Source: Candidatus Margulisiibacteriota bacterium (GTDB taxonomy: Bacteria > Margulisbacteria > Marinamargulisbacteria > SXXA01 > SICP01). From it: 64,000 nt of DNA. The position numbers and the translations under genes were made by a program. Location of the stretch: the NCBI GenBank assembly GCA_009691415.1, contig SICP01000002.1, positions 36,547 through 100,546 of the forward strand. Reading direction: 5' to 3'. The notes under the pieces are model-generated. The model worked only from the letters and a program-made list of their open reading frames with translations, had not been told where the DNA came from and ran no database searches. This document shows, piece after piece, positions 7,232 to 47,681 of this stretch (positions within the stretch are counted from its first letter, which is position 1; each line of letters begins with the position of its first letter).

Positions 7232-8045
7232 AAAAACTCCTTTAGTAAAAACATATACTACCCTAATATAAAAACTAACTTATGGCAGGATTAGCATGGA
7301 GTATAACAAAAAGAGCTACAAGAATAGCCCCCCAGATTTATCGTAGCTTTAGCAGTAAGGCTGCGTGAAGATCCCGTCTGGATGAGATTAAACCCATCAA
7401 TTACAACATAATCATCCCAATTAGAAAAACACCCCTTGAAGCAATGTCATTTCGACCTTTTTGACCTCCACTCGATAACGAAACCCCGGATGCTTATGAT
7501 GCAAGATTAGCAGCACAACCTAGTGTTCTCTGAAAGGACAAAAATCCAAATTTATGCTCGAATGAACACAAAATGATTGTGAATAACATTCACGAAAATG
7601 ATATGTTTCTTGGCACTCATACCAATCCTATAACACATGCAGAAGAACGCTATCTCGTTAAAGGATTCCCAAAAGAAGACCTGTTTGTATTACGTCAATT
7701 TGTACGAGGAATGGATATACGCCATATTATTGACATCCAAAAAAATCCCAACACATATCGTCAGCACGCTTTATCTTGTACACGTTTTATTTCAAGAAAA
7801 CGATATCGATAATATCAGAAACGCAATTATTACCCACAACTCAGCAATTGTTCATCAACCACTGATACATAAACTTCGAAAATCCTACGATTTTTCAATC
7901 GTCCATAGCTCATGTTTTTCTGCCACTTGATTCCTTATTTCTTGAACAAAATACGGCGCTAAAAATACTTATATGAGAGTCCAAAAAAAACAGTCGATCT
8001 GACCCGTAAGACCTTAAAAAAAAGATAGGATTTTAGAATTGAAAG

Positions 8046-23317: not shown

Positions 23318-23503
23318 ATGACTACCTACCTTTAATGATAACTTGCCACCCATAAAGAGGGATAGCGTAGAAAATTTTAAGGCGAAATTTATAGTATGTC
23401 AAGCTTTTTCTAGAGACCCCACAAAAATAAAATGCAAGTTCTCCAGAAAAACTTACGATACTACAGCCATACAAAGAAAAAAATAAAATGAAGGCAGATT
23501 AAA

Positions 23504-24133
23504 ATGAGTACAATTAAAACAAACATCCTAATACAAACATCCCTCACAATCCTCAGCATCATTGTATTAGGCTCTAGTTTTAACACTTCATCTGCAGAGA
23601 CGATCGACACAGAGATCGACACAGACAAGAGCTCACTCACCATAGACACACTTCTTCACTTTGGATCTGGCTTCAGCGATACTTTTCAAGCCCCTAGCGG
23701 CAGCAAAGATTCTGTTAACCTCAACAACAAAACCAACTCATTATCCATACTCAGCGCCGGCTTTAAAGTGCTCGCGCAAGAAATGGATCAATACAATCGT
23801 GAGGCAAGCAGTACAGCAACAGGTACTGGCCCAGCAAGAGTAACCAGCCCCCCACTCGTCTACCCCAATCCTTTTCGCCAAAAAAACGGCGCAAAATTAG
23901 GTTACGGGCTAGCTGGAGAGATCAATGAAATTGAAATACAAATCTATGACATGATGGCCAATTTAATCACCAAAAAAACATTCAAAGATCAAGGCGCAAG
24001 ACAAGGTTACAATTTTATCGATATTAATCTCCAAACATTCGATGGCCACTATCTTTCTGCAGGCGTTTATTTCTTACTCATCCTAAACGACGGGAAAGTA
24101 CTAGCTAAAGGAAAGGTTGCGGTGATCCCATGA
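23504..24133 (+). CDS. small secreted protein with a C-terminal FlgD-Ig-like / T9SS-type (Por_Secre_tail-like) beta-sandwich domain
   Basis: Signal peptide MSTIKTNILIQTSLTILSIIVLGSS. C-terminus ...LVYPNPFRQKNG...IEIQIYDMMANLITKKTF...LSAGVYFLLILNDGKVLAKGKVAVIP resembles the YPNP...IxIYD...GVYF...K motif set of TIGR04183 and FlgD_ig domains. Confidence 0.6.
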   Translation: MSTIKTNILIQTSLTILSIIVLGSSFNTSSAETIDTEIDTDKSSLTIDTLLHFGSGFSDTFQAPSGSKDSVNLNNKTNSLSILSAGFKVLAQEMDQYNREASSTATGTGPARVTSPPLVYPNPFRQKNGAKLGYGLAGEINEIEIQIYDMMANLITKKTFKDQGARQGYNFIDINLQTFDGHYLSAGVYFLLILNDGKVLAKGKVAVIP

Positions 24134-25059
24134 AAAGACTAGCGCTAGCAACATGTATCGCAGTGCTTCTATTGAATACTTCTGCAAAAGCAACGGGAGA
24201 CTTCTTCATCTCAACAGATGTAGGATCGTCAGCAGAAATGATTGGCCAAGCCAACATAGAAGGCTTCACCGACAAAGCCAATAACGTTTTCGACAATCCT
24301 GCAGGCCTTTATAGGATAAATCAATTTTCCACCAGTCTCTTCACCACAACATTTTTGAACGAAGTGACTTATAAAAATCTATCTGTCGCAATGAGATTGC
24401 CAGAAGGCATTTTGGGATTAGGATACATGTCTACAGAGGTAAGCGGACTGATCTCAACAACTGCCAGCAGAAATGAAAACCAAGAAATCACAGAAATCAC
24501 ATCAGATGGCAACACGTTCGGTTATAATAACACCATGATCAAAGCAAGTTATCAATGGTCTCAAACGGAACATCTCCATTGGGGAACATCCGCAGTATTT
24601 TATACAACTTCCATAGGGAATGTTACCGGAAAAGGTATTAATCTAGACGCAGGAGTTATCCTAGATTACTATCCTTTAGTACTTTCTATATCAGCAAAAA
24701 ATCTACTTGGGGGCAAAGCAAAGTATTCTAATGGGGGCGAAGAAAATCTTCCAGTACAAACTACTTACGGGGCACAATATAATTTTAATGAATTCCAAGT
24801 TGCTGGACAATTAAAAAGCAAAGGAAGCAATCACAACATGATAAAATCAGCATCGATTGCTTACCACCCAAGCACGCTACCTTTTCTAGAATTATCAGGT
24901 GGTTACAAAGAGTACAGCGTATTAGATGCAGTAAAGAGTAATTTAACATTTGGATTCGGATTAAACCTCTCAACAATCAGCTTCAACTATGCGTATGAGT
25001 CTAGCGAGAACATTCAATTCAACCACAAACATTATTTTTCAGTCAGCCTTTCTTTGTAA
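24130..25059 (+). CDS. predicted outer-membrane beta-barrel protein (possibly PorP/SprF-like)
   Basis: Signal peptide MKRLALATCIAVLLLNTSAKA. Alternating amphipathic beta-strand pattern throughout and an aromatic-rich C-terminal strand. The NVFDNPAGLY segment weakly resembles the NPAxAG signature of PorP/SprF. 4-nt overlap with the upstream gene; lies 17 nt upstream of giant gene 1. Confidence 0.45.
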   Translation: MKRLALATCIAVLLLNTSAKATGDFFISTDVGSSAEMIGQANIEGFTDKANNVFDNPAGLYRINQFSTSLFTTTFLNEVTYKNLSVAMRLPEGILGLGYMSTEVSGLISTTASRNENQEITEITSDGNTFGYNNTMIKASYQWSQTEHLHWGTSAVFYTTSIGNVTGKGINLDAGVILDYYPLVLSISAKNLLGGKAKYSNGGEENLPVQTTYGAQYNFNEFQVAGQLKSKGSNHNMIKSASIAYHPSTLPFLELSGGYKEYSVLDAVKSNLTFGFGLNLSTISFNYAYESSENIQFNHKHYFSVSLSL

Positions 25060-25075
25060 AAAATGAGGACATAGC

Positions 25076-28000
25076 GTGAAACGCAAATTATTACTCACAC
25101 TTTTAACCTGGCTTATCCTCTTCGCAACAGCTGAATTTGCGCAAGTCACCTTTACATTTAAAGGCAGTTTAATGCGCGCAGACAAAACGTTCATAAATGG
25201 CACCTACAACAACGTAAAAGTAGGCATATATTCTGACGTTGATGAAAGCGTTGCTGACGTTTGGTCAGAAATACAAAATGGAGTGGTCTTTGAGACAGGC
25301 CGTTTCAGCATTCTTGTAGGCAATGTAGACCCAGTTGCGAACCCCCTTAGAATCAGAACGTTCAACATCAACCTCCCCCACTTAGGATTTACAATCAATG
25401 GCAGCGAATTCTTCATCCCTTTTACCTCAACCCCTTATAGTATGCGAACAAAAGTAGCAGAAAAAACAAGCGCCGTTTCAGCACAATACATCGTAGGAAC
25501 ATTCACAAAGCCCGTTGCCATAAAATCTACATTAACCATTACAAGTGGCAATACAACATTACTTAAAACAACCGCCTTAAGCCAAGTAGGAATCGGCAAA
25601 GACAACCCCTTAACAAAAATCGTCAATGGTAAAACTGTCGCAGCAGCACAACTGGACGTCAATGGCCCCGTCAATAGTAGTAGTGGCTTTAAACTAAATG
25701 GCATTGATATCGCAAGAACATTGTCCTGGAAACAGAATGCCCCTATTACTAAAAATATTTATTATGCCAGCGGAAATGTAGGAATCGGACTTCAAAATCC
25801 ACAGTATGCTCTAGATGTGCAAGGAACACTCAATGCAACACAACTACTTCTAAAAGGGAAACGCTTATCTGCCGGACTAGATTGGCAACACGAAGTAAAT
25901 GCCAGTCAAAATTTATACTTCAAAACAGAAGCAGACAATCGCGTGGGTATCGGTAGAGTAGACCCCCAGCAATCGCTTGATGTTAACGGTAGCATAGCAG
26001 TGTCGAGCAACATCACTGATCAAACTACACCACTCCGCGGCATGATCAGAATGTCCCCCACAAGCAATGAAATACAAGGCTTCCGAGACAACCAATGGAT
26101 TCAACTAACAGGATTGAGAGGGCAAGGTCAAAAAAACCAGATCAGTTTTTTCACAAATAAATTTGTACTTTCTGGCTACACACCCTTTTCTTGGAAATCT
26201 CAAACAAACTTACTAGGTATCGGAACCACCTCGCCTCTATCCCAATTGCATTTAGTTAAAACCGAGACCCTCGCCCCATCGCTATACATACAAACAGCAA
26301 CAAACCTCCCTCTATTGGTAGTAACCTCAAATGGAAATATTGGTGTAGGAACTTCTAATCCCAACCAAAAATTAGTTGTAAAAGGAACCCTCAACTCAGA
26401 ACAACTAACAGTAAATGGCCTAGACTTATCATTAGCCGTCTCAAATTCATCTGTATGGATATTGAACAAACAGAGTAGTCTCTTTTACAAATTAGGAAAC
26501 ATAGGAATTGGAAAAATCGACCCGAACAGTCCACTTACTATCGCACAAAGAGTGAATCATCCTGATGAAGACCCAGCCATCACCTTTCGTCAAAACAGTG
26601 GCAACAGCTACACAATGGGCATAAGCAGTAAAAGACCTGATATTTTCCGAGTAGAACGCGGCGACAAATTAAATACCACAACACCCCTATTCGTCATGAA
26701 AAATTACTCTTTTGGCACGGGACTAACTGATCCGTTAGCGCTACTTCACGTTAGCGGCAACGAAGGCGCCGTCTTCAATGGGAAGTTCTTTGGCGTCATA
26801 GACGAAACTTTCCCTGATGTAGACTCAGCAGGAAAACCCATTCTTCCACAAGTAGTACAAGAGGGGGAAGGAACACGTTTTATTTGGCATCCATTACGCG
26901 CTGTTTTGCGAGCGGGTACAGTAACAGGAAATCAATGGAACAATATTAACCTTGGCAAATTCTCCGTAGCATTTGGGTTAAATAATACTGCCAGTGGTAA
27001 TTTCACAACCATCCTAGGCGGAAAAAACAACCTCGCCACGGGTGCGTATTCCACAATATTAGGAGGCGAAAACAACAAAGCTATGGGCGATTTTTCTTTA
27101 GCCAGCGGATACCGAGCAAAAGCACTTCACCATGGATCGTTTGTCTGGGGAGATCGTTCAGGTACAGCATTAAGCACCATCGCACTTAATCAATTTTTAG
27201 TAAAAGTCTCAAATGGTGTAGGAATAGGAACAGCCCTTACCTCAATAGAAGGCAAAAAAAGTACATTAACAATCAAAAAAGTAACCCCCAGTGGTAATAT
27301 TTTTCAAATAGTCGGCAAAAATCTAGCTACTGACATCTTTCAGGTAAGTACTTCTGGCAATGCCATTATAGGATCTAGATCCAGAACAACAGCAGGTTTA
27401 AGCGTCATGGGTAAAACCCAATTTGGAAACAAACAAGTGCCCCCCACGATCAATAGCTTCTTAACCATTTCCAGCGAATCCCCAACCCAAGCCATTTGGA
27501 TTTCAAATAGTAATGAAGATATCAACACCACTCCCAATTTTATTCTTACAAGCTCAGGAAATTTAGGCACCAACATCATTCCTTTGCCAGACGTTATTAC
27601 GAAATTTAAAAATGGAACAGTACAGATAGGAAGAGGCGGCATATTAGGCAATAGTTATGAACTCCCTGATGGAACAAAAATCGGGACAAAGGCTACAGAA
27701 GTCTGGGGCTTAGACGCAGCACCCAATGTCTATTTCACCACTGGAAATGTAGGTATTGGGACAACACGACCTACAAGTCTTCTAACCATTTCAAACGTTG
27801 CCAGCAAACTCTTTCAATCACCCAAAAATCCTGCCATCACATTCTCAAAAAATACAACCCACTACATTTTAGGAATAGAAAATAATGTACCCGATACATT
27901 AAAAATGTTATCTGGTTACGACCTAGCACAACCATCAAAACTTGCGTTTAAATATTCAGAAAATACGCTTGGAAGAATAGGCGTAGGAACAGAAAATCCA

Positions 28001-31000
28001 AGAACTGTATTTCACGTCAATAATCCCGCAATCTTAGGAAAAAGGGTATCCATTGCTACTACAAATACCAATGTAAAATACAACTTAATTACAGGATCCG
28101 CTTCTTTTAGGCCTCTATTTTTAGACAAGCAATTTATGTCTGCATCTGGAACACCTTGGACAACAACAAGAAATTTTAGCCTATATTTTACAAATGGGAA
28201 AATTGGAATTGGCACAACCGCGCCAACAGTAGCTCTCTCAATAGCAGGAAATATAAAAGCAACAGCCGTCCGCATCAAAGATGCATTTACTGTCAAAGAA
28301 ACAGCAACTTTAATTCGACTTGATTTCTTAAATCCCGATGGCATCTCATTAAAATTAGGGGTAAGCGCCTCGAAGTTACGCCTTGGAGACATCTCTATTT
28401 CAGACATACTCTCAAGGGGAAATAATACAGCACAAACAAAAGGGCCATTACTCTTATGGCAAAGCGCCAATATCATAGGAGACACAAACCTAATATGGTC
28501 ATCTGATTCCGCACCCCCCCATCAAACGGGCACCTTAACCTCTACTAAAAATATCCGAATCCCAACAACACTAACCAAAACAAACTCATTCCAGCAAACA
28601 ACATTGGTACAAGTAGGATCTGCGAACATTACAAACGTACTTAATGTCGCCTCAGATCTCACCCATAACGGAAATTTCTCTAACTCAGAATCACATGCCA
28701 GTCAAAAGATAACCGTCAATTTAGAACCTGGTAATTGGGCAGACCCTATCAATACGACACAACCTATATTCACAGGACTCGACATAAGAATAGTTAATAA
28801 GGCTAATCTAAGTGGTGCTACAAATTTTACAACACAAGCACAAGCAATAGGATTAAATATTGATGTAAGCAAAATAAATACCCAACAAACTGGAGAACCC
28901 GGATTCAATTTTGCCGCTCTTTTTAATGGTAACGTGGGCATTAATACATTCCCATCTCCAACTACTCCAACCAGAGCCATATTGGATATAAAAGGCACCG
29001 TACAAGCAGATTCATTTATCATATCCAAAAGACTCAGCATTTCCACGCTGAACGTAACAGGAGACACGTTAACAATAAAACAAACAAGACCTATTAAAAT
29101 TGGAAATCCTAAACCAACAAACCCTATCTACGATCTTCTGGTACAAGGAACTGTACAAGCAACAAACGGCATTATTGGAACATTAGAATCTGGAGCACTA
29201 AATGCTGCAAATGGGGCTCTTCTCGTAAATACATCCGGGCAAATAGGGATTGGCACAACAGCCCCAGAAGGTACCTTTCACATCAAAAAATTATTTACCA
29301 CAACAACAGGCAGAGATTATTTCGCTAACAGAGTGCATAGCACCGTTGATATTCTGGAAAACCCAAAAAAATTAACAGAAAATCTTACAGGCCTGGGACT
29401 CAATCTAAACACAAAAACAAACAATAAAGTAGGGACGCCACAAACACCTCAAACAGCAACAGGCTTATCCATCAATCTCAGCAATATGACTTCAAACGAT
29501 AATGGTACGGTAATCGGGATTTCCAGCAAAACCAATAAAACCAAAAACCAAACGAAATCTGCCATATTTTCAGGAGGAAATGTTGGCATCGGCGTCACAC
29601 AACCAACCGACACACTCGTTGTAGTTGGAACCATCCGAGCCAAAGCGGTAGACAATACACGCTTATTAACACAACAAGAAGCCGCCTCATTTAATAGACT
29701 TGTTGTAACTAGTAATGCACTCTTTAAAGGCCACGTAACTGCAAACGCAATCTTCGCTACAACCATCATCACCAAAACCGATCAACTCACCATTAACGGT
29801 AGTATCCTTCTCCCTTCAATCGCACTAACTATACAAGAAACTCCAGGATTATTAATTAGCAGAGCACTTTCAATAACAGCTAACACAAAAATAAACGCCC
29901 TCTCCCTCAACGAAAAGCTCGTAGGTACAGCCGCAACATTTAACAAGCTTACTTTGACCAATTCACTCACCACCACCACGCTCAATATCTTGAGCTTACA
30001 AGCAAGTGCCTCTATTGAATTAAATGCCGCACAAGCAAACTTAAATTCACATACAATTATTGCCAGCGGAAAAGTTGGCATTAGCATAACAGACGCAACA
30101 GAACGCCTCGCTATCGCTAGCGATAAAAAAGAATCTACAATCTTCCGTGCTCAAAACCTCTCAGCAACTAAAAATACTGCAGCAGGAATTTTATTGGTTC
30201 CTGACATCAAATCAGACCAAAATACAGGCTCCGGCATTGCAGCCATTAAAGTCACCGCCGCAGGTTCAAATTCACCGGGCTCAGAACTGGCTTTCATCAC
30301 AGATCCCATCAATGGATCTCCTACAGAACGCGCACGTCTTACACAGATCGGAAATTTTGTAATTGGCACAAAAAATGCCTCCAGTACATTATATGTAAAT
30401 CAAACTTCCCTAATACAAGGAGCGGCTACATTTAATACAAAGGTCACCACAAAAACCCTAGCTTCAGCAAGCGACATCATCATCAAAAAAACAACCGTAT
30501 TTAACAACCCAACTGAAATAAGTACGCTCTTAACACAAAAACCTATCCAGATTAAATTGGCAACACTTGGCACCGTTACATCTGGCACCAGCGCATTAAG
30601 TCCCTCCGCATCCGAAAAATTAATATACAAAACGATCCTAGATGACAACTCAGTGGTCGCATCGGATATCACTTCACTCGTAACAGGTTCTGTCGGAAGA
30701 CTTCCCTATTACAACAGCAGTCATAGATTGACAGATAACACATCTTTGACCTGGGCAACACAAAATATATCCAGCATTCCCTATAGCACCCTCGTTATCG
30801 GAAAAGTAAGTTCCGGTAGCATGGCCATCGTAACAACATTCAAAAATACATTAACCGGTACCCCAACCGCAGAAGATATCCAACTCACATTTAAAGACCG
30901 CACTTCTGATATTTCCACATTTGGAGAAAGAAAATTCTACGGAATGCAAATTATCGCTTCCAAAAATACCAATGCGAGCGTTGCTCCTGGGGAAACAGCA

Positions 31001-34000
31001 AGAGGTCTATCTGTTGACCTCTCCACCCTTAAATCAGAAAGCACCACTTTTCAAGGTAACGGCACTATCCTTAAAGGAACAAAATATGCAGCCCTTTTCA
31101 ATGGTGGAAACGTCGGAATTGAAACAATCTCTCCAAACGCTACATTACAAATTCAACCGAAAGATACTATTACCTCCCTACAAATCGACACCAAAACACA
31201 GGCCGGCACAGTCATCACCAAAGCTCTCATGGTCAATACCAGTGGAAATACTAGCATCGGCGCAACCTCAAACACCAAACTAACCCTTAAGCTATTAAAC
31301 ACAACGTCATCAGACTCCACCCTACTGATCACAGATTCAAACAAAAACTCCCTTCTCGCTCTCAAAAATAACAATAGAATCGGCATAGGAAATGTAGCAC
31401 TTACCACCGAATTTAATGTGGCTGACCCAATCAAAGCCAAAACACATACAGCACGAACATTGCTCGCAAATACACTCACCATCAACACCGATAAATTAGT
31501 CGTTCTAACCAACGGAAATGTGGGCATTGGTAATACAAATCCTCAAGCTCAACTCCATCTGATTCAAAAACTCACCCGACAACCTGCCTCCAACTTTATT
31601 ATAGAAAACTTAGGCCTTACGGTTGGAGGCACTCCCCTTAGAACAACGTTAACAGGACTCGCGTTAACAATTACATCCAATGCTTACAATTTATTAGGAT
31701 TCGAGAACACACCAAATAAAGGAACCGGCATTAAATTTTCTGCAACTTCTTTGGCACTCGCCACAACATCCACTTTAGTAGGTATCAACGTTAATGTACC
31801 AAAAGGCACCAGCTCAAACAGTACATTAATCAGAGGAGGAAACGTAGGGATAGGAATAACCAATCCAAGCGCCACACTCCATATCGCAGGCACATTAAAA
31901 GTAAGCGGAAATATTCTTCAAACAACAACTGGAAACCTGTCTATTCCTGGAGTAACCGCAAATAAATTAACATCAACCGGAAGAAATACATTTAACACGT
32001 TTAAAGTCCGTGGCTCAGTAAAAAAAGTAGTGATTACAAATAGATTAATTATTAAAGAATCTTCTGTTTCTCTTCTACAAAAAGCCCCCACCACAAATTT
32101 CATTTTATTAAAAAGCAAGACGCTTGCTCGCTTTACACAAGCATCAACAGGAACAAGCAACATCCCATCAAAAAGCGTATTCAATATCGCTGCTCAATTA
32201 CCAACACAAACAGCTATGACACTTCAAAAAGGAACCGTTATAGCAACAAACATGTCCACACTTACGACAAACCGAGGACTCGTAACACTCACGCATGATA
32301 GTTCATTAGATACACCCCCAATACCCGCGTTAAAAATCGGAACAACCGTAACCCCAAATGCACTATTCGTCAGTAATACGGGACAAGCCAGCGTCGGAAC
32401 CTCTTCAAGCCTTGCAAAATTAACAATCATAGAAGGAAGTGCACGATCAACAGCAAAAGCACTCTTAATTACAAGTTCTGCTGGATCCCCTTTATTAACA
32501 GCACTCAACAACACAACAATAGGCTTAGGAACAAAAACTCCGGAAGCCTTAATCCATATCGTAGGTCAAAGTACCCAGCCTAAAGTTCTAAAATTAGCTT
32601 CATCCGTTTCTGAAAACATATTAACCATGCTAGCAAACGGTGCCATTGGCATTGGCATAACTGCCCCCGATAGCGCGCTACAGGTTCAAGGCACATTCAA
32701 AGTTTCATCAGTAAGTACCCCCAATCTTATTTCTGTATCTAATGCAGGAAACGTAGGAATTTGGAAGACCGCAACCGCAAACTATCCTCTCTATCTTGAC
32801 CAAAATATGCGACTAGGAAACAGCACCGACGGAACACTTCCTAAGTATTTTAGGGACCAGTCTAGAAAAAACAGAGGCTTTATTACACAGACTGGCAGTA
32901 ACCACACATTCTTTGGACTTAGAGAAACAGTCACCGGAAATAGCAACTACGCTCCAGTCATTTATTGGGGAAGCAGCAATACAGATGCCTTAACATTCGA
33001 AACCAGCGCCGGACTTGAAGCTGCCAGATTAATCAATAAATCGGTAAGTATCGGCGGCATCATACCAAGTGCAACATTACATATCAGCAATATCAATAAT
33101 ACCACCGCAGCACTACTCACCTTAAAAACTGCAAAACTACCCAATCTACTTACTGTCACAGCAAATGGCTCAATAGGGATTGGAATCGCGCCAACAATTA
33201 ACGCCGATGTCTTTGTCTCAGGATCCATCAAAGCCAAAGGCCTCAAACAACCACCAGGAGGTACAGAATTAACAGCGCCTACTATTAACATCGTCAATTC
33301 AACAACAACCTATTCAAGTTTTTCAGTATCCTCAAATATCCTGTCAGATCATGCGCAAACAGCAGAAGCTATAACTCTTCAACTTGATAAAGATTCTACA
33401 GGAACCTTGATTGGAAAAAGCATAACGTTGTTATCATCTGTTACACAAAACAACGTAAACAAACTCGCTACGACACAACACGGACTACGTGTAGATATAA
33501 GCAATCTTTTTATCGACAAAAATCCAACATTTGGAGACAATATCGCACAAAAATTTGCAGCTGCTTTTAAAGGAGGCAATGTAGGTGTAGGCACAAAAAC
33601 ACCCAAAACAACGTTTGAAGTAACTACCAGAAAAAACGCGCCTGGCAATATCGCTAGTTTCCGAGCAACCCCCAACATCATCCCTGGTGGTAGCACTCCC
33701 GTAAAACAAGCTGATCTCACCTTCACAAGCTACGCCACAGTCAATATTTCCGGACAAAAATTATCTGTCCCTACAGACTCCTTTAAAACCATCGCATACA
33801 CACTAAAAAATGGCCAACTCTTTAATGGCGGCAACACATTCTACGTAACAGACGACATCGCAAAAGATATCATGTCAAAACTTATCCAAAGTAACATCAT
33901 TGACCCCACTACTAGAAACGTACTCCAAACAACTAAAGCGGCCCTGATCACGGCGATTGGTACAGGTTCATCTCCCGGATATTTTAGAGACTACATCACC

Positions 34001-35449
34001 ACAAAAAATGTCTTATCTATTCTCTTACCCTTCATCGAAAAACACACCATTGTTCTGCAACATACAGATCTTAGTAGCGCAGCAACTAGTTACAACGTAC
34101 TAAGTTTTAGCTCAGGACTCGTAGCAAGAAGACCCAATATTGATAGTCCCGTCAATACAACCAAATTATTACAAAACGCCTTTAAATTTTCGGGCAGCGT
34201 GGGTATTGATGTTAAAAAAATTGATATACCGTCACAAAACACCACACTAACCGTCAGTGGCAATATTAGGATCGGTACCATCTTCAATACTTTTAGCGTA
34301 GAACCCGTCGCGGTTGGACCTAGTCTTCGATTCTCTGGTGGTTACCTAGTCAGCGACACAGCCCCTAATAGTGACAACAAAGAAGCGTTTTCTATACTTC
34401 GCAACAATATTGAAGACGGAATCTCTCAATTACGTATCACAGTCGGAGCAGAAAGCACCAGACCAAATGCACTATTCACTGTTGGATATAATACAAAAGG
34501 ACGCACTACAGAATTCAGTGGCGGCTCTTGGAAAAATGTACTCAATGTTCTCGCAACACAAAATGGAACAACTCCTGTTGAACGCGTTGGCATAGGAACA
34601 ACAACACCACGGGCTACGTTACATATTGTAGGAACAGGCAGTTTTAACGAGCTTACTGATACCCCCACAAATATCGCCAAAACCGCACTGGCTCTATTCG
34701 AAAACCAATCCTCTTCTGGCGCACAAACATTAGCTATTAAAAATAGTACAGAGGCTGGACTAACCTCAGAAGCCAATTTTATTACCTTCCTAAGTTCAAC
34801 CACCAATACCAGTACAATAGCGACATTGGGATCTATCGAAGGAAATACAGACGGTGGCGTCAAATTTACATCCCCTGAGGGAGACTATGCAGAGTACATT
34901 CTTAAAGAGAATCCCCAAGAAAATTTAGAGCCCGGAACCGTTGTCGGTATTCATAAAGGCACTATCAGTAAAAACACACAGGGCGCTGATCAAATCATGG
35001 TCATCAGTTCCTCACCTATTATAGTTGGAAACGCAACCAAAGAAACACATAAAAACAGTGCTATGGTTGCCTTCCTAGGACAAGTGCCCATCAACGTCAC
35101 AGGAACAGTGAACGCGGGAGATCTTCTCATCGCATCTGGTCAAAATGACGGCTTAGCCATTGCCCTGTCTGCCAACAAAATTACAGCCTCTCAAATCGAT
35201 CTTATTCTGGGTCGCGCTTGGGAAAGTTCAGACCAAGTAACTGTTAAATCTATAAAATCAGCGATCGGATTTTCTTATGGATTACAAATTTTTGGAACCC
35301 AATTGTCAAGCATAAAAACAATGACATCCAATGTAAAAACCCTACAAAAAGAACTCGCACAAAAACGAAAAGACTCCCTAGAAATACTCGAAAAACGTCA
35401 GAATAAAATCAACCTATTAAAAGAAAAAATAGGGACGGCCATCCCATGA
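25076..35449 (+). CDS. giant secreted fibre-like repeat protein, 3457 aa (GTG start)
   Basis: Uninterrupted 10.4-kb ORF with signal peptide MKRKLLLTLLTWLILFATAEFAQV. A degenerate repeat architecture is punctuated more than 30 times by G-N-V-G-I-G-T-x-x-P-x-x-x-L-x-V. There is an SxAxG-rich block around 26860..27200. It is T/N/S/G-rich. The C-terminal module carries a GDYAEY motif and a terminal coiled coil. It is a paralogue of the gene at 37426..47187. Confidence 0.85.
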   Translation: MKRKLLLTLLTWLILFATAEFAQVTFTFKGSLMRADKTFINGTYNNVKVGIYSDVDESVADVWSEIQNGVVFETGRFSILVGNVDPVANPLRIRTFNINLPHLGFTINGSEFFIPFTSTPYSMRTKVAEKTSAVSAQYIVGTFTKPVAIKSTLTITSGNTTLLKTTALSQVGIGKDNPLTKIVNGKTVAAAQLDVNGPVNSSSGFKLNGIDIARTLSWKQNAPITKNIYYASGNVGIGLQNPQYALDVQGTLNATQLLLKGKRLSAGLDWQHEVNASQNLYFKTEADNRVGIGRVDPQQSLDVNGSIAVSSNITDQTTPLRGMIRMSPTSNEIQGFRDNQWIQLTGLRGQGQKNQISFFTNKFVLSGYTPFSWKSQTNLLGIGTTSPLSQLHLVKTETLAPSLYIQTATNLPLLVVTSNGNIGVGTSNPNQKLVVKGTLNSEQLTVNGLDLSLAVSNSSVWILNKQSSLFYKLGNIGIGKIDPNSPLTIAQRVNHPDEDPAITFRQNSGNSYTMGISSKRPDIFRVERGDKLNTTTPLFVMKNYSFGTGLTDPLALLHVSGNEGAVFNGKFFGVIDETFPDVDSAGKPILPQVVQEGEGTRFIWHPLRAVLRAGTVTGNQWNNINLGKFSVAFGLNNTASGNFTTILGGKNNLATGAYSTILGGENNKAMGDFSLASGYRAKALHHGSFVWGDRSGTALSTIALNQFLVKVSNGVGIGTALTSIEGKKSTLTIKKVTPSGNIFQIVGKNLATDIFQVSTSGNAIIGSRSRTTAGLSVMGKTQFGNKQVPPTINSFLTISSESPTQAIWISNSNEDINTTPNFILTSSGNLGTNIIPLPDVITKFKNGTVQIGRGGILGNSYELPDGTKIGTKATEVWGLDAAPNVYFTTGNVGIGTTRPTSLLTISNVASKLFQSPKNPAITFSKNTTHYILGIENNVPDTLKMLSGYDLAQPSKLAFKYSENTLGRIGVGTENPRTVFHVNNPAILGKRVSIATTNTNVKYNLITGSASFRPLFLDKQFMSASGTPWTTTRNFSLYFTNGKIGIGTTAPTVALSIAGNIKATAVRIKDAFTVKETATLIRLDFLNPDGISLKLGVSASKLRLGDISISDILSRGNNTAQTKGPLLLWQSANIIGDTNLIWSSDSAPPHQTGTLTSTKNIRIPTTLTKTNSFQQTTLVQVGSANITNVLNVASDLTHNGNFSNSESHASQKITVNLEPGNWADPINTTQPIFTGLDIRIVNKANLSGATNFTTQAQAIGLNIDVSKINTQQTGEPGFNFAALFNGNVGINTFPSPTTPTRAILDIKGTVQADSFIISKRLSISTLNVTGDTLTIKQTRPIKIGNPKPTNPIYDLLVQGTVQATNGIIGTLESGALNAANGALLVNTSGQIGIGTTAPEGTFHIKKLFTTTTGRDYFANRVHSTVDILENPKKLTENLTGLGLNLNTKTNNKVGTPQTPQTATGLSINLSNMTSNDNGTVIGISSKTNKTKNQTKSAIFSGGNVGIGVTQPTDTLVVVGTIRAKAVDNTRLLTQQEAASFNRLVVTSNALFKGHVTANAIFATTIITKTDQLTINGSILLPSIALTIQETPGLLISRALSITANTKINALSLNEKLVGTAATFNKLTLTNSLTTTTLNILSLQASASIELNAAQANLNSHTIIASGKVGISITDATERLAIASDKKESTIFRAQNLSATKNTAAGILLVPDIKSDQNTGSGIAAIKVTAAGSNSPGSELAFITDPINGSPTERARLTQIGNFVIGTKNASSTLYVNQTSLIQGAATFNTKVTTKTLASASDIIIKKTTVFNNPTEISTLLTQKPIQIKLATLGTVTSGTSALSPSASEKLIYKTILDDNSVVASDITSLVTGSVGRLPYYNSSHRLTDNTSLTWATQNISSIPYSTLVIGKVSSGSMAIVTTFKNTLTGTPTAEDIQLTFKDRTSDISTFGERKFYGMQIIASKNTNASVAPGETARGLSVDLSTLKSESTTFQGNGTILKGTKYAALFNGGNVGIETISPNATLQIQPKDTITSLQIDTKTQAGTVITKALMVNTSGNTSIGATSNTKLTLKLLNTTSSDSTLLITDSNKNSLLALKNNNRIGIGNVALTTEFNVADPIKAKTHTARTLLANTLTINTDKLVVLTNGNVGIGNTNPQAQLHLIQKLTRQPASNFIIENLGLTVGGTPLRTTLTGLALTITSNAYNLLGFENTPNKGTGIKFSATSLALATTSTLVGINVNVPKGTSSNSTLIRGGNVGIGITNPSATLHIAGTLKVSGNILQTTTGNLSIPGVTANKLTSTGRNTFNTFKVRGSVKKVVITNRLIIKESSVSLLQKAPTTNFILLKSKTLARFTQASTGTSNIPSKSVFNIAAQLPTQTAMTLQKGTVIATNMSTLTTNRGLVTLTHDSSLDTPPIPALKIGTTVTPNALFVSNTGQASVGTSSSLAKLTIIEGSARSTAKALLITSSAGSPLLTALNNTTIGLGTKTPEALIHIVGQSTQPKVLKLASSVSENILTMLANGAIGIGITAPDSALQVQGTFKVSSVSTPNLISVSNAGNVGIWKTATANYPLYLDQNMRLGNSTDGTLPKYFRDQSRKNRGFITQTGSNHTFFGLRETVTGNSNYAPVIYWGSSNTDALTFETSAGLEAARLINKSVSIGGIIPSATLHISNINNTTAALLTLKTAKLPNLLTVTANGSIGIGIAPTINADVFVSGSIKAKGLKQPPGGTELTAPTINIVNSTTTYSSFSVSSNILSDHAQTAEAITLQLDKDSTGTLIGKSITLLSSVTQNNVNKLATTQHGLRVDISNLFIDKNPTFGDNIAQKFAAAFKGGNVGVGTKTPKTTFEVTTRKNAPGNIASFRATPNIIPGGSTPVKQADLTFTSYATVNISGQKLSVPTDSFKTIAYTLKNGQLFNGGNTFYVTDDIAKDIMSKLIQSNIIDPTTRNVLQTTKAALITAIGTGSSPGYFRDYITTKNVLSILLPFIEKHTIVLQHTDLSSAATSYNVLSFSSGLVARRPNIDSPVNTTKLLQNAFKFSGSVGIDVKKIDIPSQNTTLTVSGNIRIGTIFNTFSVEPVAVGPSLRFSGGYLVSDTAPNSDNKEAFSILRNNIEDGISQLRITVGAESTRPNALFTVGYNTKGRTTEFSGGSWKNVLNVLATQNGTTPVERVGIGTTTPRATLHIVGTGSFNELTDTPTNIAKTALALFENQSSSGAQTLAIKNSTEAGLTSEANFITFLSSTTNTSTIATLGSIEGNTDGGVKFTSPEGDYAEYILKENPQENLEPGTVVGIHKGTISKNTQGADQIMVISSSPIIVGNATKETHKNSAMVAFLGQVPINVTGTVNAGDLLIASGQNDGLAIALSANKITASQIDLILGRAWESSDQVTVKSIKSAIGFSYGLQIFGTQLSSIKTMTSNVKTLQKELAQKRKDSLEILEKRQNKINLLKEKIGTAIP
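25777..34640 (+). repeat. array of degenerate protein-level repeats in giant gene 1 marked by the ggaaaYgtNggNatYgg (G-N-V-G-I-G) signature
   Basis: Examples at 25777, 26338, 26497, 27739, 29578, 31108, 31513, 31843 and 32749. The units are diverged at nucleotide level, so these are not identical tandem DNA repeats. Confidence 0.7.
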
Positions 35450-35973
35450 ACGAAAAACATATCCATTCCGAACAAATTTATAAGGGCCGTATTATAAATC
35501 TGAAAAAAAATACGGTACTCCTTACCAATGGAAAAACCGCCACCAGAGAAATTGTTGAGCACGATCCCGCAGTCGTTATCATCGCCTACGATACAAATAA
35601 AACAATTCGGCTAGTCAAACAATACCGCACCCCCGTACAACAAGTTCTACTCGAAGCCCCTGCCGGAATAATTAATAAAGGTGAGCTTCCTCTCAACGCA
35701 GCTAAACGAGAATTACAAGAAGAGACAGGCCTCACCGCAACACAGTGGACCTCCTTAGGCGAAGCCTACCCTGCCCCAGGATTTTGCAATGAATACCTTT
35801 ATTTTTTTCTTGCACAAGACCTTCAGCAAGGGCCACCAAATCCAGATGAAGATGAATTTTTAGAACAGGTAACACTCTCAATGCCAGAATACAAACACCA
35901 CATCCAAACAAAACAAATTATCGATGCCAAAACCATTATGTCTTTTTTTTACATAAAGGAGCACGGATTATGA
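35446..35973 (+). CDS. NUDIX hydrolase (ADP-ribose pyrophosphatase-like)
   Basis: Nudix box GIINKGELPLNAAKRELQEETGL. 175 aa. ATGA overlap with the stop of giant gene 1. Confidence 0.85.
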   Translation: MNEKHIHSEQIYKGRIINLKKNTVLLTNGKTATREIVEHDPAVVIIAYDTNKTIRLVKQYRTPVQQVLLEAPAGIINKGELPLNAAKRELQEETGLTATQWTSLGEAYPAPGFCNEYLYFFLAQDLQQGPPNPDEDEFLEQVTLSMPEYKHHIQTKQIIDAKTIMSFFYIKEHGL

Positions 35974-36839
35974 AAAACCATATGCCCGCATTTTTTCACT
36001 ATCTCTCCTATGAAAAAAGAGTCTCTCCCAACACCATAACTGCATACAAACAAGATCTCACACAGTTTTTTGAACGCCACTCAGAACTCTCAGGAAATAC
36101 CATTTCTCAGTTTATAGCAGACCTAACACAACACGGTTACAAAAATGCATCCATCACACGCAAAACATCTTCTCTTAAAACATTCACAACATTTCTCTAT
36201 CGAGAAAAATATATACCCACCCATCCCATCGCACTTTTAACACGTCCGAAACATGAGAAACGCCTCCCAACAATACTACATTCACACGAAATTAATGCTA
36301 TATTGAATACCTCGTCTGATCATACTAAAACCCCACTGAGAGATACCGCGCTAGTCGAAATACTTTATGGATGCGGACTTAGAATTACAGAATGTCTAAA
36401 TATCAAACTCACCGACATCAACAACGCTCAACAAACCTTACTTGTAACAGGAAAAGGGCAAAAACAACGTCGACTACCTATTGGCACCAAAGCCCATGAA
36501 GCCCTTACAACCTACATCAAAAACGAACGTCCCTTGTTAGAAAAAACCAATCCATCGGACTATCTCTTTATCACGCGCTCCGGAAAAAAATTATCCAGAC
36601 AAAACAGCTTCAACCGCATCAAAGCTCTCGCCAAACAAGCATCTATAACCAAAAAAATGAGTCCTCATACCCTTAGACATACCTACGCCACCCATTTGCT
36701 AGACGGCAACGCAACGCTTCTAGAAGTACAATCTCTCCTCGGACACAGTCACATAACAACAACCCAGCTCTATACAAAAGTTTCTACAAAGCGTCTCAAA
36801 GAAAGCTATTACCAAGCACACCCGAGGGCATTAGCATGA
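35970..36839 (+). CDS. xerD: tyrosine site-specific recombinase XerD/XerC-like
   Basis: 289 aa. N-terminal SAM-like core-binding domain (LSYEKRVSPNTITAYKQDL). Catalytic residues sit in GLRITE (R), HTLRHTYAT (H-x-x-R) and LGHSHITTTQLYTKV (H, Y). ATGA overlaps at both ends. Confidence 0.9.
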   Translation: MKNHMPAFFHYLSYEKRVSPNTITAYKQDLTQFFERHSELSGNTISQFIADLTQHGYKNASITRKTSSLKTFTTFLYREKYIPTHPIALLTRPKHEKRLPTILHSHEINAILNTSSDHTKTPLRDTALVEILYGCGLRITECLNIKLTDINNAQQTLLVTGKGQKQRRLPIGTKAHEALTTYIKNERPLLEKTNPSDYLFITRSGKKLSRQNSFNRIKALAKQASITKKMSPHTLRHTYATHLLDGNATLLEVQSLLGHSHITTTQLYTKVSTKRLKESYYQAHPRALA

Positions 36840-37429
36840 TTATAGCCATCAGCATTCTCTCGCTTCTCATAGCCGTTATCTTCCATGAAGTAGCCCATGG
36901 TTATGTAGCCTATCGATTTGGAGATCCCACAGCCAAACTTCAAGGACGAATTAGCCTCAACCCACTTGTTCACATTGACTGGTTAGGCTCTATTATCTTG
37001 CCAGGCATCCTTATCCTTTCGGGAGCTCCATTTCTAATAGGATGGGCAAAACCGGTACCCATCAACCCCAATTATTTTCAAAATCCTCTCCGGGACATGA
37101 TGTGGGTAGCCATCGCAGGGCCACTAACAAATATCACGATAGCCCTCTTTGCCAGCACAGTTTTAAAATTCCATCTCAACAGTGTTCTCGACTATTTTTT
37201 AGTCGTTTCAATTAGTATTAATATCGTACTTGCACTCTTCAATCTTTTCCCCATCCCACCGCTTGATGGATCTCGGATACTCATGTACATAGCCCCAAAA
37301 TCCATCCAACACTTTTTAACATCCATAGAGCCTTACGGGTTTGTTATTCTATTTTTCTTAGTCTATCTCAACGTTTTTCAGAAGATCTTGCCGTTTCTAA
37401 TCCACCCCATATTGGAGGCACTATTATGA
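36836..37429 (+). CDS. site-2 protease family (M50B) integral membrane zinc metalloprotease, 197 aa
   Basis: HEVAHGYVAYRFGD (HExxH) in TM1, LNPLVHIDWLGS, and the ...FNLFPIPPLDGSRIL motif typical of M50B proteases. ATGA overlap with the start of giant gene 2. Confidence 0.8.
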   Translation: MIIAISILSLLIAVIFHEVAHGYVAYRFGDPTAKLQGRISLNPLVHIDWLGSIILPGILILSGAPFLIGWAKPVPINPNYFQNPLRDMMWVAIAGPLTNITIALFASTVLKFHLNSVLDYFLVVSISINIVLALFNLFPIPPLDGSRILMYIAPKSIQHFLTSIEPYGFVILFFLVYLNVFQKILPFLIHPILEALL

Positions 37430-40400
37430 AATGCAAGTTTTTCCAGAAAAGACTCGATATGAAAAATAAGAAAATCAAAAAAAATAAGGGTATAATTGTG
37501 AAAACACTCATGAAAACAAAAACGTTAATCACCCAAGCCCACCTATGGATAGCTATCCTCTTCCTAACTTTGCTTACATCTGTGAGCTTTGCGACTACCC
37601 CAATGGTCTTAACATTTCAGGCTACCCTAGCCAGACAACAAGGAGGACTTATTCAAGGAAGAAACAAAGTAACGATTGGAATATATCCGGGAAATTCAAT
37701 TGAACCCACCTGGATTGAGCCTCACAATAACGTACTCTTTATCAACGGTAGTTGCAGTATCATTCTGGGAAATATACAACCGCTTACCCCAGACCATCTC
37801 AATGTTCCAAATCCTCGCTTCGGACTAAAAGTGGGTAACACTTCACAAATTGCCTATTTTCCTGTTCCATCAACCCCGTATTCCATACAATCTAAACTAG
37901 CTGACAGTGCACTCTCCGTTTCAGCCAACAATATTTCAGGAACCTTCACAAATCCAGTTAGGATTAACGCAAACCTAACTGTAGGCGACACAACCCTATA
38001 TGCCAATCCAACCACAGGAAAAGTAGGTATCGGGACTACCGCCCCCACTTACAAACTGGATGTTGCAGGAATCATTAATGCAACCGGATTTAAAATTAAC
38101 GGCATCGACTTAGAATCTTCATTATCTTGGCAAAAAAAAGCCAATAACGCTCTATACTACACACAAGGAAACGTCGGAATAGCAACACAAAATCCAAAAA
38201 CACGTCTAGAAGTCGCTGGGACCATCAATGCACAAGAAATACGAATCAAAGGCGTTGAACTCTCAATCCTACTTGCCACTCAACTTGCCTGGCGTGAAGG
38301 TGCTAGACCTAAAGACATCTATTTTAATGACGGTACTCAAGAAGGCAATGTAGGAATTGGCACATCGATACCACGATCAAAACTAGATGTTGCTGGAGCT
38401 ATTCGCGTAGGAGAAGCCCAAAGTAACACACTGGGAAGCATTCAATATAAAAACAATGATTTCCAAGGATTTACAAAAACAGGATGGACTTCTTTTGCCT
38501 CTCTATCCGGTATCGGCGCAGCTAATCAAATTCCTTTCTGGACAAATTCCACAGAACTTTCCGGAAGCACTAATTTAGTCTGGGATCGCACACGAAATAG
38601 ATTAGGCATTGGAACAAATAACCCTACAGCACAACTCAGCATGACTGCCATTGACGCCAATCGTGCACTTGTACGCATCGACAATTCATTAGGGAAAACA
38701 CTATTTTATGTAGGCAGTCAAAATGTTGGGATTGGAACATCAACCCCAAATAGCAAACTAACCGTAAAAGGAGTCGTTGATGCGGAAGCCTATCTCGTCA
38801 AAGGGGTTCCTATCGCACAAGCCCTGTCTTCAAACTCATTTTGGGTTTTCCAAAACGATGGACGTATTTACTATGATAAAGGCAACGTGGGAATTGGCAC
38901 AATAAATCCTAAAAATCTTTTAGAACTAGCCGCAGCCCCATCACGAGACCCCATCATTACATTTGATATTGCAAGCAACCCCGCTTTCAGTTTAGGTATA
39001 TCAGCATCAAATCCAAATGCCTTCATATTAGGAAAAGGAGGGGATCTCAAAAACCCAATTTTTGTTTTTAATGGCAATAAAATTGGCGTAGGTCTCACCT
39101 CACCGAGCGCCAATTTACATGTGAGTGGAAACAGCGGCGTTCTTTTCACAGGAACACTAAATAATGGAACTCCCCTTGGCTTAAAAGGTGAAGGCACACG
39201 ACTCGTTTGGCACCCAGGAAAAGCCGCATTTAGAGCAGGTTATGTTAATAGAAAACAATGGGATGAAGAAAATATTGGTCTGTATTCTGTAGCAATGGGA
39301 TATAATCCCTCAGCCAATGGACTTGCATCGGTAGCAGCGGGTGGTTACGAAAGTGATGCAGGCGGAAATTATGCAGTGGTTGCCGGTGGATTCAAAAATA
39401 AGGCAAAAGGTATCCATAGTTTCGCTGCAGGGCACCAAGCATTAGCTCTCCATGCCGGATCATTCGTATGGAGTGATTATTCTCCAACTGCATCAGAAAC
39501 AAGCTTTAAATCAGTAATGTCCAACCAATTTGTTATACGTGCTACAAATGGTGTCGGTATTGGAACAAACCTAACAGCAGGAAATGGGCTCACTGTTGCA
39601 TCAGATTTTAATGACACTTATATCGTAAATGCACTAAAACCAGATGGAACAAGCGCCATGATCATCAACGTATCAGGCAATGTTGGATTGGGAACAACCG
39701 ATCCAGGAATCGCTAAACTTGCTGTCATGAACGGAAAAGTTGGGATAGGAACAACCACACCGATCGCGCAATTAACTCTATCGGGAAGTACACCTGACGG
39801 ATTCCAATTTGTCGCTTATAAAAAAACAGGAGTACCCGCATTCTTTATAAAAAACGACGGCAGAATCGGAATCGGAAAACCTCTAAACTATGTATTCGCT
39901 GATGACATCTATTTGGCTATTTCAGGCGCTATTGTAGGCAATGCCTTTGCCATACAAAATCCAAATGGAAGTCAGACACAGTTAGAAAGTAATCCAGGAT
40001 CACCTTGGGCCATCCCTTCTGAAAATCTTAACAGCACTTTCTTCAATAAAGGCTTTGTAGGAATAGGAACAAAAGCACCTGCAAGTCTTCTGGAATTGTC
40101 CAACGCCGCCTCATCAACTCGAAATCCAGTCATTACATTCGACACAGATGGCGTCAAAAGATTTAGTTTAGGTACAACTGCAAATGTATTTACTATTCAA
40201 AAAGGTGGCACTATCAATAGTAAAAACCCACTTTTCGCACTCACAGATAATGGTAACGGGGGTGGTGGCGTTGGCATTGGCATTGGTTACAAAACCCCCA
40301 GCGCCTCTCTACATGTCAGTGGCAATTCTATGTTTACCAGTAAAGTCGTCATTGCCACAACCAATACCACGCAGATCTATGACTTAACTGTAGAGGGAGC

Positions 40401-47216: not shown

Positions 47217-47681
47217 ATGTATGTCAACAGATCTGTAGAACTATCATCTGAAAACGAACACCGTTTTCAAAATTTCATTGTATTTGAGCCCGCATCATCT
47301 AGGGTTGGCGACTGTGACATCTTGATAAAAAGCGAAAAAGTGAGAGACCTATACGAACGCATTTATACCTCTCTTGAAGAAAGCCACGCCATCAAAGATC
47401 GCATCCTTAAAAACAGACTTGTTAAAATAGGCCAAATGTTAGACCTACTTGTGGTCTATGATCACGTCATTATTACCAAATTTTTCGACCGCATCTGGAG
47501 ACGCTATTCATACATCAGTAGCATCGGCGAACTCTTTTTGGACTACCCTACTTTCATTCATCATTTCCCAGAATACAAAGATAAAAAAACAGAGTTACTT
47601 GCGCAACGCATTGACGATGATGATGACGAAGAAACCGATGGAGATGACGTAGAAATAGCAGACCCTGTAAAAAAAGAGTAA
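47217..47681 (+). CDS. hypothetical protein with a strongly acidic C-terminal tail
   Basis: 154 aa, with AGGAGG RBS 8 nt upstream. Ends with ...QRIDDDDDEETDGDDVEIADPVKKE. No recognised family. Confidence 0.5.
   Translation: MYVNRSVELSSENEHRFQNFIVFEPASSRVGDCDILIKSEKVRDLYERIYTSLEESHAIKDRILKNRLVKIGQMLDLLVVYDHVIITKFFDRIWRRYSYISSIGELFLDYPTFIHHFPEYKDKKTELLAQRIDDDDDEETDGDDVEIADPVKKE

Follow-up and report, generated by a model that had tools for sequence, protein, structure and literature searches.

What is a small protein with a type IX sorting domain, encoded together with an outer-membrane barrel, doing directly upstream of a giant fibre gene in a bacterium that lies outside the Fibrobacterota-Chlorobiota-Bacteroidota (FCB) superphylum? 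This question is raised by positions 23504-25059 of a 64,000-nucleotide stretch of contig SICP01000002.1 from the metagenome-assembled genome of a Candidatus Margulisiibacteriota bacterium (the whole stretch is referred to as the window, and all coordinates are positions in it unless a related locus is named). Type IX secretion systems (T9SS), together with the logic by which C-terminal sorting domains (CTDs) are handled by carriers of the PorV family, count as hallmarks of the Bacteroidota and of related members of the FCB group. That a type A-like CTD and a barrel of the PorV/PorQ type share a coupled operon with a giant fibre, and do so in a phylum that is a sister lineage of the Cyanobacteria, raises two possibilities: either CTD-barrel pairs work without a T9SS translocon, or T9SS exist outside the FCB group. 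Here we describe the domain identities, folds, synteny and translational coupling of this three-gene unit and set out a reading, on which we are evenly divided, in which the barrel and the small protein form a cognate carrier and anchor pair for the fibre that most resembles PorQ-PorZ.

Two small genes are coupled to a giant fibre gene

The two open reading frames (ORFs) are as described in the original prediction, which was made from the DNA letters alone, including the C-terminal sequence that it quoted. The small protein is encoded at 23504-24133 (209 amino acids, aa) and the barrel at 24130-25059 (309 aa), both on the + strand and with ATG starts, and the two genes overlap by 4 nt through the sequence ATGA. 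Giant fibre gene 1, the presumed client of the pair, follows directly and in the same orientation at 25076-35449 (+ strand, 3457 aa, GTG start). It is separated from the end of the barrel gene at 25059 by 16 nt, one fewer than the 17 originally counted, and a GAGGA ribosome-binding site lies inside this gap ahead of the GTG. Given the lack of terminator-like sites on the + strand between the three genes in a scan up to 25300, the genes look like one operon. A promoter-like site at 23368-23395 (+ strand, TAGAAA-16-TATAGT) falls in the 150-nt intergenic region between a divergent cold-shock gene and the small-protein gene; it is tentative, being a consensus match only (9 of 12 positions), and the scanned region contained 11 promoter-consensus sites against 5.6 expected by chance. 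As judged by reading the sequences, all three products have N-termini that resemble signal peptides, with putative cuts between SSA and E in the small protein, AKA and T in the barrel, and EFA and Q in giant 1.

The small protein carries a type A-like sorting domain and essentially no passenger

The small protein is made up of a signal peptide, a conserved region that is predicted to be disordered, a linker and a type A-like CTD. The CTD occupies residues 112-209 (23837-24130, + strand), runs to the last residue of the protein and contains the motifs YPNPF, IYDM.ANL, GVYF and KGK.AVIP. It passes the curated NCBIfam model of T9SS type A sorting domains (TIGR04183, 28.3 bits against a cutoff of 23), aligning over residues 119-206 to model positions 1-70 of 72, and the same model matches all 32 aligned members of the family with a best E value of 7.2e-10. 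The PorU CTD region is matched by 14 of these 32 members and the PorZ model by three. When run with the family alignment, AlphaFold2 builds residues 112-208 into a seven-stranded beta-sandwich with a predicted local distance difference test (pLDDT) score of 91-96 over most of the domain, centring on ~95. The proposal that the protein ends in a T9SS-type sorting domain is thus upheld by both model and fold, and an identical 209-aa protein in NCBI (P0053) is annotated as 'T9SS type A sorting domain-containing protein [Candidatus Margulisbacteria bacterium]'.

Upstream of the CTD, the predicted Sec signal peptide, as read from the sequence, spans residues 1-31 (23504-23596, + strand) and consists of the hydrophobic core LIQTSLTILSIIVLG followed by the cut after SSA, with an AlphaFold2 helix at residues 8-23. 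A conserved N-region then covers residues ~43-95 (23630-23788, + strand), in which the alignment motifs LLHFGSGF and N.LSILSAGF stand out. In the model of the protein alone this region has a pLDDT of 46-66, and residues 24-110 are modelled as disordered. The N-region is well conserved yet predicted to be disordered, as is common for segments that take up their fold on a partner, and this one may do so too. Taken as a whole, the protein carries essentially no passenger, only a conserved region of ~50 residues, a linker and the CTD.

The barrel is a distant relative of PorV and PorQ

The 309-aa protein had been proposed to be an outer-membrane beta-barrel with a signal peptide, and its AlphaFold2 model (pLDDT 91.9, predicted template modelling score 0.83) agrees with this. 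The predicted signal peptide comprises residues 1-21 (24130-24192, + strand; read from the sequence as a cut between AKA and T), with a modelled helix at residues 2-15. It is followed by an N-terminal plug or hatch of residues ~27-62 (GSSAEMI..GNIEGF..NPAGL; 24208-24315, + strand), which is the most conserved part of the barrel family. Residues G32, S34, A35, G45, F46, N56, P57, A58 and L60 are invariant or nearly so, and in the model short helices at 35-39, 50-53 and 57-62 precede the first strand. The NPAGL element noted in the original prediction is present here, at residues 56-60. We chose the term hatch because we presume this segment to be the counterpart of the hatch of FadL-type barrels. 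The N-terminal tail described for BamG provides a second basis for the term (PMC12611786). The transmembrane barrel itself, residues 66-308 (24325-25053, + strand), has ~14 strands by our own count of the DSSP elements of the model. Its long extracellular hairpin is formed by strands 93-114 and 120-144, and the tip of this hairpin is the most variable part of the family in both sequence and length, coinciding with the indel-rich, variable columns of the alignment.

In a Foldseek search of PDB structures, the two top matches to the barrel model were 8gl6_F (E 9e-10, TM-score 0.76) and 6h3i_F (TM-score 0.67), both from SprA-PorV translocon complexes of Flavobacterium johnsoniae. We assign chain F of these entries to PorV, judging by its length and fold and by what the complex is stated to contain (PMC10994853). 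FadL and TodX take the 3rd to 16th ranks, and a FadL-type chain of the Bacteroidota beta-barrel assembly machinery (BAM) complex, 9n2d_B, is also present among the matches. By sequence, the PorV/PorQ model NF033709 aligns to the barrel over its full length (E 7.9e-13, 48.7 bits; residues 30-308, model positions 10-325 of 326). With the PorQ model the score is 30.7 bits (cutoff 220), and the PorV equivalog model gives no match. Across 47 scanned barrel homologues, the PorV/PorQ model matches 44 (best E 8.7e-26) and the PorQ model 42, while 25 match an NCBIfam entry named 'PorV2'. Barrels of the related loci, like that of the window, stay below the cutoffs of the NF033709/NF033710/NF033711 family. 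Searches of the PDB by sequence, whether with the single protein or with a profile of 47 sequences, found no match even at E values up to 10. We conclude that the protein is an outer-membrane barrel with a FadL-type fold that is distantly PorV/PorQ-like. On genetic evidence, namely the pairing of the genes, it is a candidate binder of CTD-bearing proteins at the cell surface.

The original prediction had instead suggested that the barrel could be PorP/SprF-like. The corresponding model, TIGR03519, reaches 19.5 bits against a cutoff of 90.55, covers residues 148-294 only and matches three of the 47 family members, as compared with the full-length match and the 44 members for NF033709, and we reject this identity on these grounds. 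A Pfam scan of the barrel returned nothing useful and no PorP_SprF match. Two distant homologues bear a precomputed PF11751 label, which we take to be PorP_SprF.

The three-gene unit recurs across Margulisbacteria

We mapped hidden Markov models of both families onto the window and 25 related loci (L001-L025, 22 of them distinct). The window shares the order small protein, barrel, fibre with 13 other distinct loci (L001, L003, L004, L005, L007, L008, L009, L010, L012, L015, L019, L022 and L024), at barrel identities of 34-92%; in L025 the barrel comes first, ahead of the small protein and the fibre. Of the 15 distinct module loci, 13 (the window and 12 others) retain the ATGA overlap of the small-protein and barrel genes, at barrel identities between 92% and about 35%, and in every one of the 14 loci with the small protein, barrel, fibre order the barrel gene is followed by a large ORF that either begins within 57 nt or overlaps it. 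The proteins encoded downstream of the barrel in these loci are usually longer than 1500-3300 aa. In genome CAYGHZ01 there are four such modules, each with its own fibre. The link between the two small genes and the giant gene, as originally proposed, is therefore real and conserved, and with 52 barrel homologues, 45 small-protein homologues and a conserved gene order, chance is excluded. Divergence of the CTD and divergence of the barrel are correlated across loci (Spearman 0.77), which is weak evidence to which shared ancestry contributes.

A scan of species-representative genomes with an 11-sequence barrel alignment yielded 22 loci, all of them from Margulisbacteria. Named barrel homologues with a specific lineage likewise belong to this phylum in all cases but one; some records are labelled only 'bacterium', and one is labelled as a Thermoproteota archaeon. 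Marinamargulisbacteria, UBP8_UBA817 and a single-cell genome are among the sources. In metagenomes the family is large, a filter-free profile search having returned 480 clusters at E <= 1e-30; among ten of the clusters, one has a Margulisiibacteriota name and one derives from a Tara Oceans sample.

Pairing of a barrel with a CTD protein is not confined to the fibre modules. Beside the module of L001, and divergent from it, a 312-aa PorQ-like barrel gene is followed by that of a 530-aa S8 peptidase (6756-9237 of that locus, - strand) that ends in a TIGR04183 CTD (24.4 bits). In L008 (2059-7650 of that locus, - strand), a 1106-aa protein with a weak type A CTD directly precedes a 756-aa protein, a possible barrel fusion in which the PorV/PorQ barrel model matches the first ~250 residues and the rest has no assignment. 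These are independent examples of barrel/CTD-protein pairing in the phylum. In addition, seven loci (L013, L014, L016, L017, L018, L020 and L021) contain closely related 'solo' barrel paralogues without an adaptor or a fibre, most of them in a housekeeping neighbourhood in which def-, dcd- and exonuclease-like ORFs, recognized by eye, lie before the barrel gene. A solo barrel may be a general-purpose member of the family. An lpxB-like ORF, identified by eye from its N-terminal sequence only, was also seen near a barrel paralogue in related loci.

The giant fibres share an N-terminal domain and probably discard their C-termini

The fibres of the module loci have only their N-terminal ~110 aa after the signal peptide in common, and their bodies and C-termini differ. 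In giant 1 this domain corresponds to residues 23-130 (25142-25465, + strand). By phmmer it is common to giant 2 and to the downstream fibres in 13 of 14 related module loci; the fibre of L015 gave no phmmer match, and its N-terminus resembles that of L019 by eye. The domain, which is conserved across loci and is a candidate attachment point, has no Pfam or PDB match, and the only homologues found with the fibre N-terminus as query were seven short proteins.

At its other end, giant 1 carries an auto-chaperone of the phi29 gp12/Peptidase_G2 type together with a coiled coil (34883-35446, + strand). The isolated C-domain of ~200 residues scores 30.6 bits against PF11962 (cutoff 25), all three sequences tested match this model, and a PDB profile search with the three C-domains found 3gqh, 6qz9 and 3suc, structures of the phi29-type pre-neck appendage protein. 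The alignment begins with DYAEY of the giants opposite DFAEY, the motif with which the 3gqh fragment starts at residue 1. The gp12 protein releases its auto-chaperone fragment by auto-cleavage, and by sequence comparison giant 1 probably cleaves itself just before D3270 of DYAEY. As the coiled coil lies downstream of this motif, it would be discarded from the mature fibre if the giants are processed as gp12 is, and a CTD at the end of the fibre would be lost along with it, which could explain why the CTD is found on a separate protein. The original prediction had held that the giants end in a coiled coil and not in a CTD. The second half stands, given that CTD models have no match on the giants; the first needs correcting, in that the coiled coil belongs to an auto-chaperone of the gp12 type, which is probably removed by cleavage.

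Giant fibre gene 2 (37426-47187, + strand, 3253 aa) is related to giant 1 at both ends, with phmmer E values of 1.8e-40 for the N-domain and 2.6e-41 for the C-domain. Its auto-chaperone lies at 46621-47184 (+ strand), where DYAEY occurs at residue 3068 and is followed by a coiled coil. Giant 2 may be a second client of the module. We also observed that its annotated start (37426-37560) places a long basic extension at the N-terminus, ahead of the hydrophobic signal sequence, and an internal methionine (MKTKTLITQAHLW...) is the more likely start.

A proposed sorting and anchoring domain supplied in trans

How, then, might these parts work together? In the carrier and anchor reading, the small protein would be exported by Sec, and its CTD would not be a cleaved export tag but would be retained, as in PorU and PorZ, docking stably on the extracellular face of its cognate barrel like uncleaved PorZ and PorU on PorQ and PorV. 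The conserved N-segment of the adaptor would fold onto the N-terminal domain of the fibre or onto the extracellular hairpin of the barrel, and the adaptor-barrel pair would carry the fibre and anchor it in the membrane, presumably at the cell surface. The C-terminus of the fibre, as a gp12-type auto-chaperone, would be cut off after trimerisation, and because this end is cut off the fibre could not bear a C-terminal sorting domain of its own. A sorting and anchoring domain would instead be supplied in trans, attached at the N-terminal end of the fibre.

Several observations weigh against this reading. It leaves unexplained how a fibre of more than 3000 aa crosses the outer membrane. The barrel scores well below the curated cutoff of NF033709 (48.7 against 90 bits) and, as a distant relative of PorV and PorQ, may have different partner-binding properties. 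On the small protein, the Pfam CTD model PF18962 reaches 24.1 bits, which is under its cutoff of 27, and a Foldseek search of PDB structures returns mostly generic Ig-like domains, with the PorU and NucA CTDs among them, a result that is compatible with a T9SS CTD but does not discriminate it from other sandwiches. Ordinary cleaved cargo could account equally well for a short passenger that ends in a type A CTD. Giant 2 comes without barrel or adaptor genes of its own, and the solo barrels in housekeeping contexts indicate that the fold is not exclusively linked to fibres.

A broader form of the carrier and anchor reading, which we consider less likely than not, is that the pairs of CTD proteins and PorV/PorQ-like barrels in Margulisbacteria constitute a self-standing surface-anchoring device that needs no SprA or GldKLMN. 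If this were true, the CTD-barrel pair would be an older modular unit on which the T9SS of Bacteroidota was later built. Conversely, a canonical T9SS (SprA/Sov, GldKLMN/PorKLMN, PorU and others) might be encoded elsewhere in the genome, in which case the small protein would be ordinary type A cargo that loses its CTD by cleavage, the barrel would be a specialised shuttle that takes this cargo from the translocon, and the fibre would be linked indirectly, for example through a released peptide that caps or primes it. That the CTD passes the curated type A model, that the barrel is homologous to the PorV/PorQ shuttles and that other typical cargo, such as the S8 peptidase with a CTD, exists in the phylum all fit such a system, as does the finding that cognate shuttle genes adjoin cargo genes in Flavobacterium (PMC12618676). 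However, known type A CTDs all use one general PorV and not private barrels (PMC12618676), and a passenger of ~80 residues is unusual for cargo. No T9SS core genes were found in the 64-kb window, and none among the inspected neighbours in the flanks of related loci (up to 10 kb), which were read from precomputed Pfam labels and ORF ends and not from scans with T9SS models. Furthermore, SprA has been described as specific to the FCB group (PMC12611786) and the T9SS as belonging to the FCB superphylum (PMC11205867), outside of which the host phylum lies, and the literature that we searched holds no link between Margulisbacteria and the T9SS. We therefore regard a canonical T9SS as unlikely to account for the locus; were core genes present in these genomes, the T9SS itself would reach beyond the FCB superphylum.

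If no dedicated translocon exists, might the barrel itself be the conduit? A barrel gene beside the gene of a giant secreted protein with an N-terminal domain is the gene logic of two-partner secretion (TPS). Along these lines, the barrel would pass the fibre, the adaptor or both across the outer membrane, recognizing the N-domain of the fibre as TpsB does the TPS domain or acting like the 14-strand barrels of Slam (type XI) systems, and the small protein would be a plug, a cap or a chaperone. The position of the barrel gene right upstream of a giant secreted protein with a conserved domain just after its signal peptide, the multiplication of the modules together with their fibres and the fact that no other translocon is evident are all in keeping with this. 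The protein, however, bears no Omp85, POTRA or DUF560 signature in Pfam or NCBIfam, and in its model the conserved N-terminal plug closes off the FadL-type barrel; moreover, a fibre that is trimeric and ends in an auto-chaperone would presumably fold before or during export. None of the known relatives PorV, PorQ, BamG and FadL is a protein conduit; they serve as carriers, anchors or channels for small molecules (PMC10994853, PMC12611786), and we consider a translocating barrel quite improbable. Two-partner secretion proper was rejected, there being no Omp85 or POTRA signature on the barrel and no match of Omp85, POTRA or TPS models on the giants, and the similarity lying in the gene logic alone. 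Finally, that the barrel is a channel for hydrophobic compounds of the FadL kind, the small protein an unrelated periplasmic or surface Ig-domain protein and their proximity to the giant meaningless might be suggested by FadL and TodX as the second tier of structural matches and by the solo paralogues in housekeeping contexts, but the barrel has no match to FadL-family or Toluene_X models in Pfam or NCBIfam at E values up to 10 as against PorV/PorQ matches family-wide, and synteny strongly disfavours this very remote explanation: the trio and its coupling are kept in 13 further distinct loci, at barrel identities as low as 34%, and genomes contain duplicates of the entire unit. A FadL transporter was rejected on these grounds.

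The carrier and anchor reading suggests a design principle in which a mini-adaptor delivers a sorting and anchoring domain in trans to a client whose own C-terminus is discarded. It also offers a candidate for the molecular make-up of surface fibres in a marine lineage that is widespread and uncultured. Electron microscopy has revealed fimbriae-like structures on Ca. Ruthmannia eludens, a symbiont belonging to the Marinamargulisbacteria (PMC6784892), and by analogy these may be fibres of the kind encoded by the module, although this is only a lead.

Genomic surroundings of the module

Apart from the module and the giants, the window is ordinary chromosome. Its remaining genes encode transketolase, RseP, MazG, SepF, YggS, FtsEX, a SurA-like protein, a resistance-nodulation-division (RND) pump with a TolC-like protein, IlvD, fatty-acid synthesis enzymes, GlnA, PyrG and YchF, and beyond the window the source contig holds only housekeeping genes at one end. 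A phage origin of the two small genes was rejected in view of this housekeeping chromosomal context. As TolC-like and SurA-like proteins are encoded in the window, the host cell is diderm.

Between the giants (35446-37429), three housekeeping-type genes follow one another with 4-nt overlaps; their products are a Nudix hydrolase, a XerD-like recombinase and a short M50-family peptidase of 197 aa. As a whole, 23504-47187 looks like one very long co-oriented gene string. Right after giant 2, at 47217-47681, there is a 154-aa ORF with a strongly acidic C-terminal tail and no Pfam or NCBIfam family match. The + strand has negative GC skew and positive AT skew over the whole window (1-64000), irrespective of gene strand, with GC skew weakest over parts of the giant genes; the skews fit a position inside a single replichore.

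Comparison with known systems

Surface proteins held by outer-membrane barrels are known from several systems. PorU and PorZ are held at the surface by PorV and PorQ (PMC5562754), type B CTD proteins by their linked PorP-like barrels (PMC9143113, PMC12618676), and in the Bacteroidota BAM complex the FadL-type BamG holds extracellular BamH, which has an extended tail that rests on a pillar formed by strands of the barrel (PMC12611786). The first of these is the closest. In the attachment complex of Porphyromonas gingivalis, as in our module, a barrel of the PorV/PorQ family is paired with a Sec-exported type A CTD protein, and the barrels described here match the PorQ and PorV/PorQ models while some of the small proteins match those of PorU and PorZ. 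Unlike in that complex, the scores here are under the curated cutoffs, the partner is a protein of ~200 aa without an enzymatic or lipopolysaccharide-binding domain, translational coupling joins the two genes and a giant fibre gene comes next, and the host lies outside the FCB superphylum. Each fibre locus also has its private barrel, whereas one general complex serves the known systems.

The original prediction had taken SprB-SprF of gliding Bacteroidetes as its analogy. In F. johnsoniae, type B CTD proteins with PorP-like barrels do link a giant adhesin to a cognate carrying or anchoring barrel (PMC9143113, PMC12618676), and there too private paralogous pairs multiply with their clients. With a barrel that is PorV/PorQ-like, however, PorQ-PorZ or PorV-PorU is the nearer analogue: the barrel here is not PorP/SprF by its model score, and the CTD is type A-like, not type B, and sits on a separate small protein, not on the giant. 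The gene order differs as well, since sprF lies downstream of sprB and the barrel gene here lies upstream of the giant.

BamG-BamH offers a structural parallel. There, a 14-strand FadL-family barrel uses extended strands as a docking pillar and the extended N-terminal tail of the partner lies in a groove of the barrel (PMC12611786); here, the barrel has a long extracellular hairpin and the adaptor a conserved, extended N-region. In contrast to that pair, only one of the 47 barrel family members weakly matches the BamG model, the partner is not a lipoprotein, and no link to BamA is known. For the fibres themselves, the likeness is to the phi29 gp12 tailspike, whose PF11962 model the C-domains of the giants pass and with which they align from the first residue of the 3gqh fragment. 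Unlike gp12, the giants are cellular, Sec-exported proteins of more than 3000 aa with an extra terminal coiled coil, and their cleavage is predicted from sequence.

Taken together, the module differs from the known systems in combining a private barrel for a type A-like CTD, a CTD that resides on a separate mini-protein and a host outside the FCB superphylum; recognition of the client through the N-terminal domain of the fibre is presumably a further difference.

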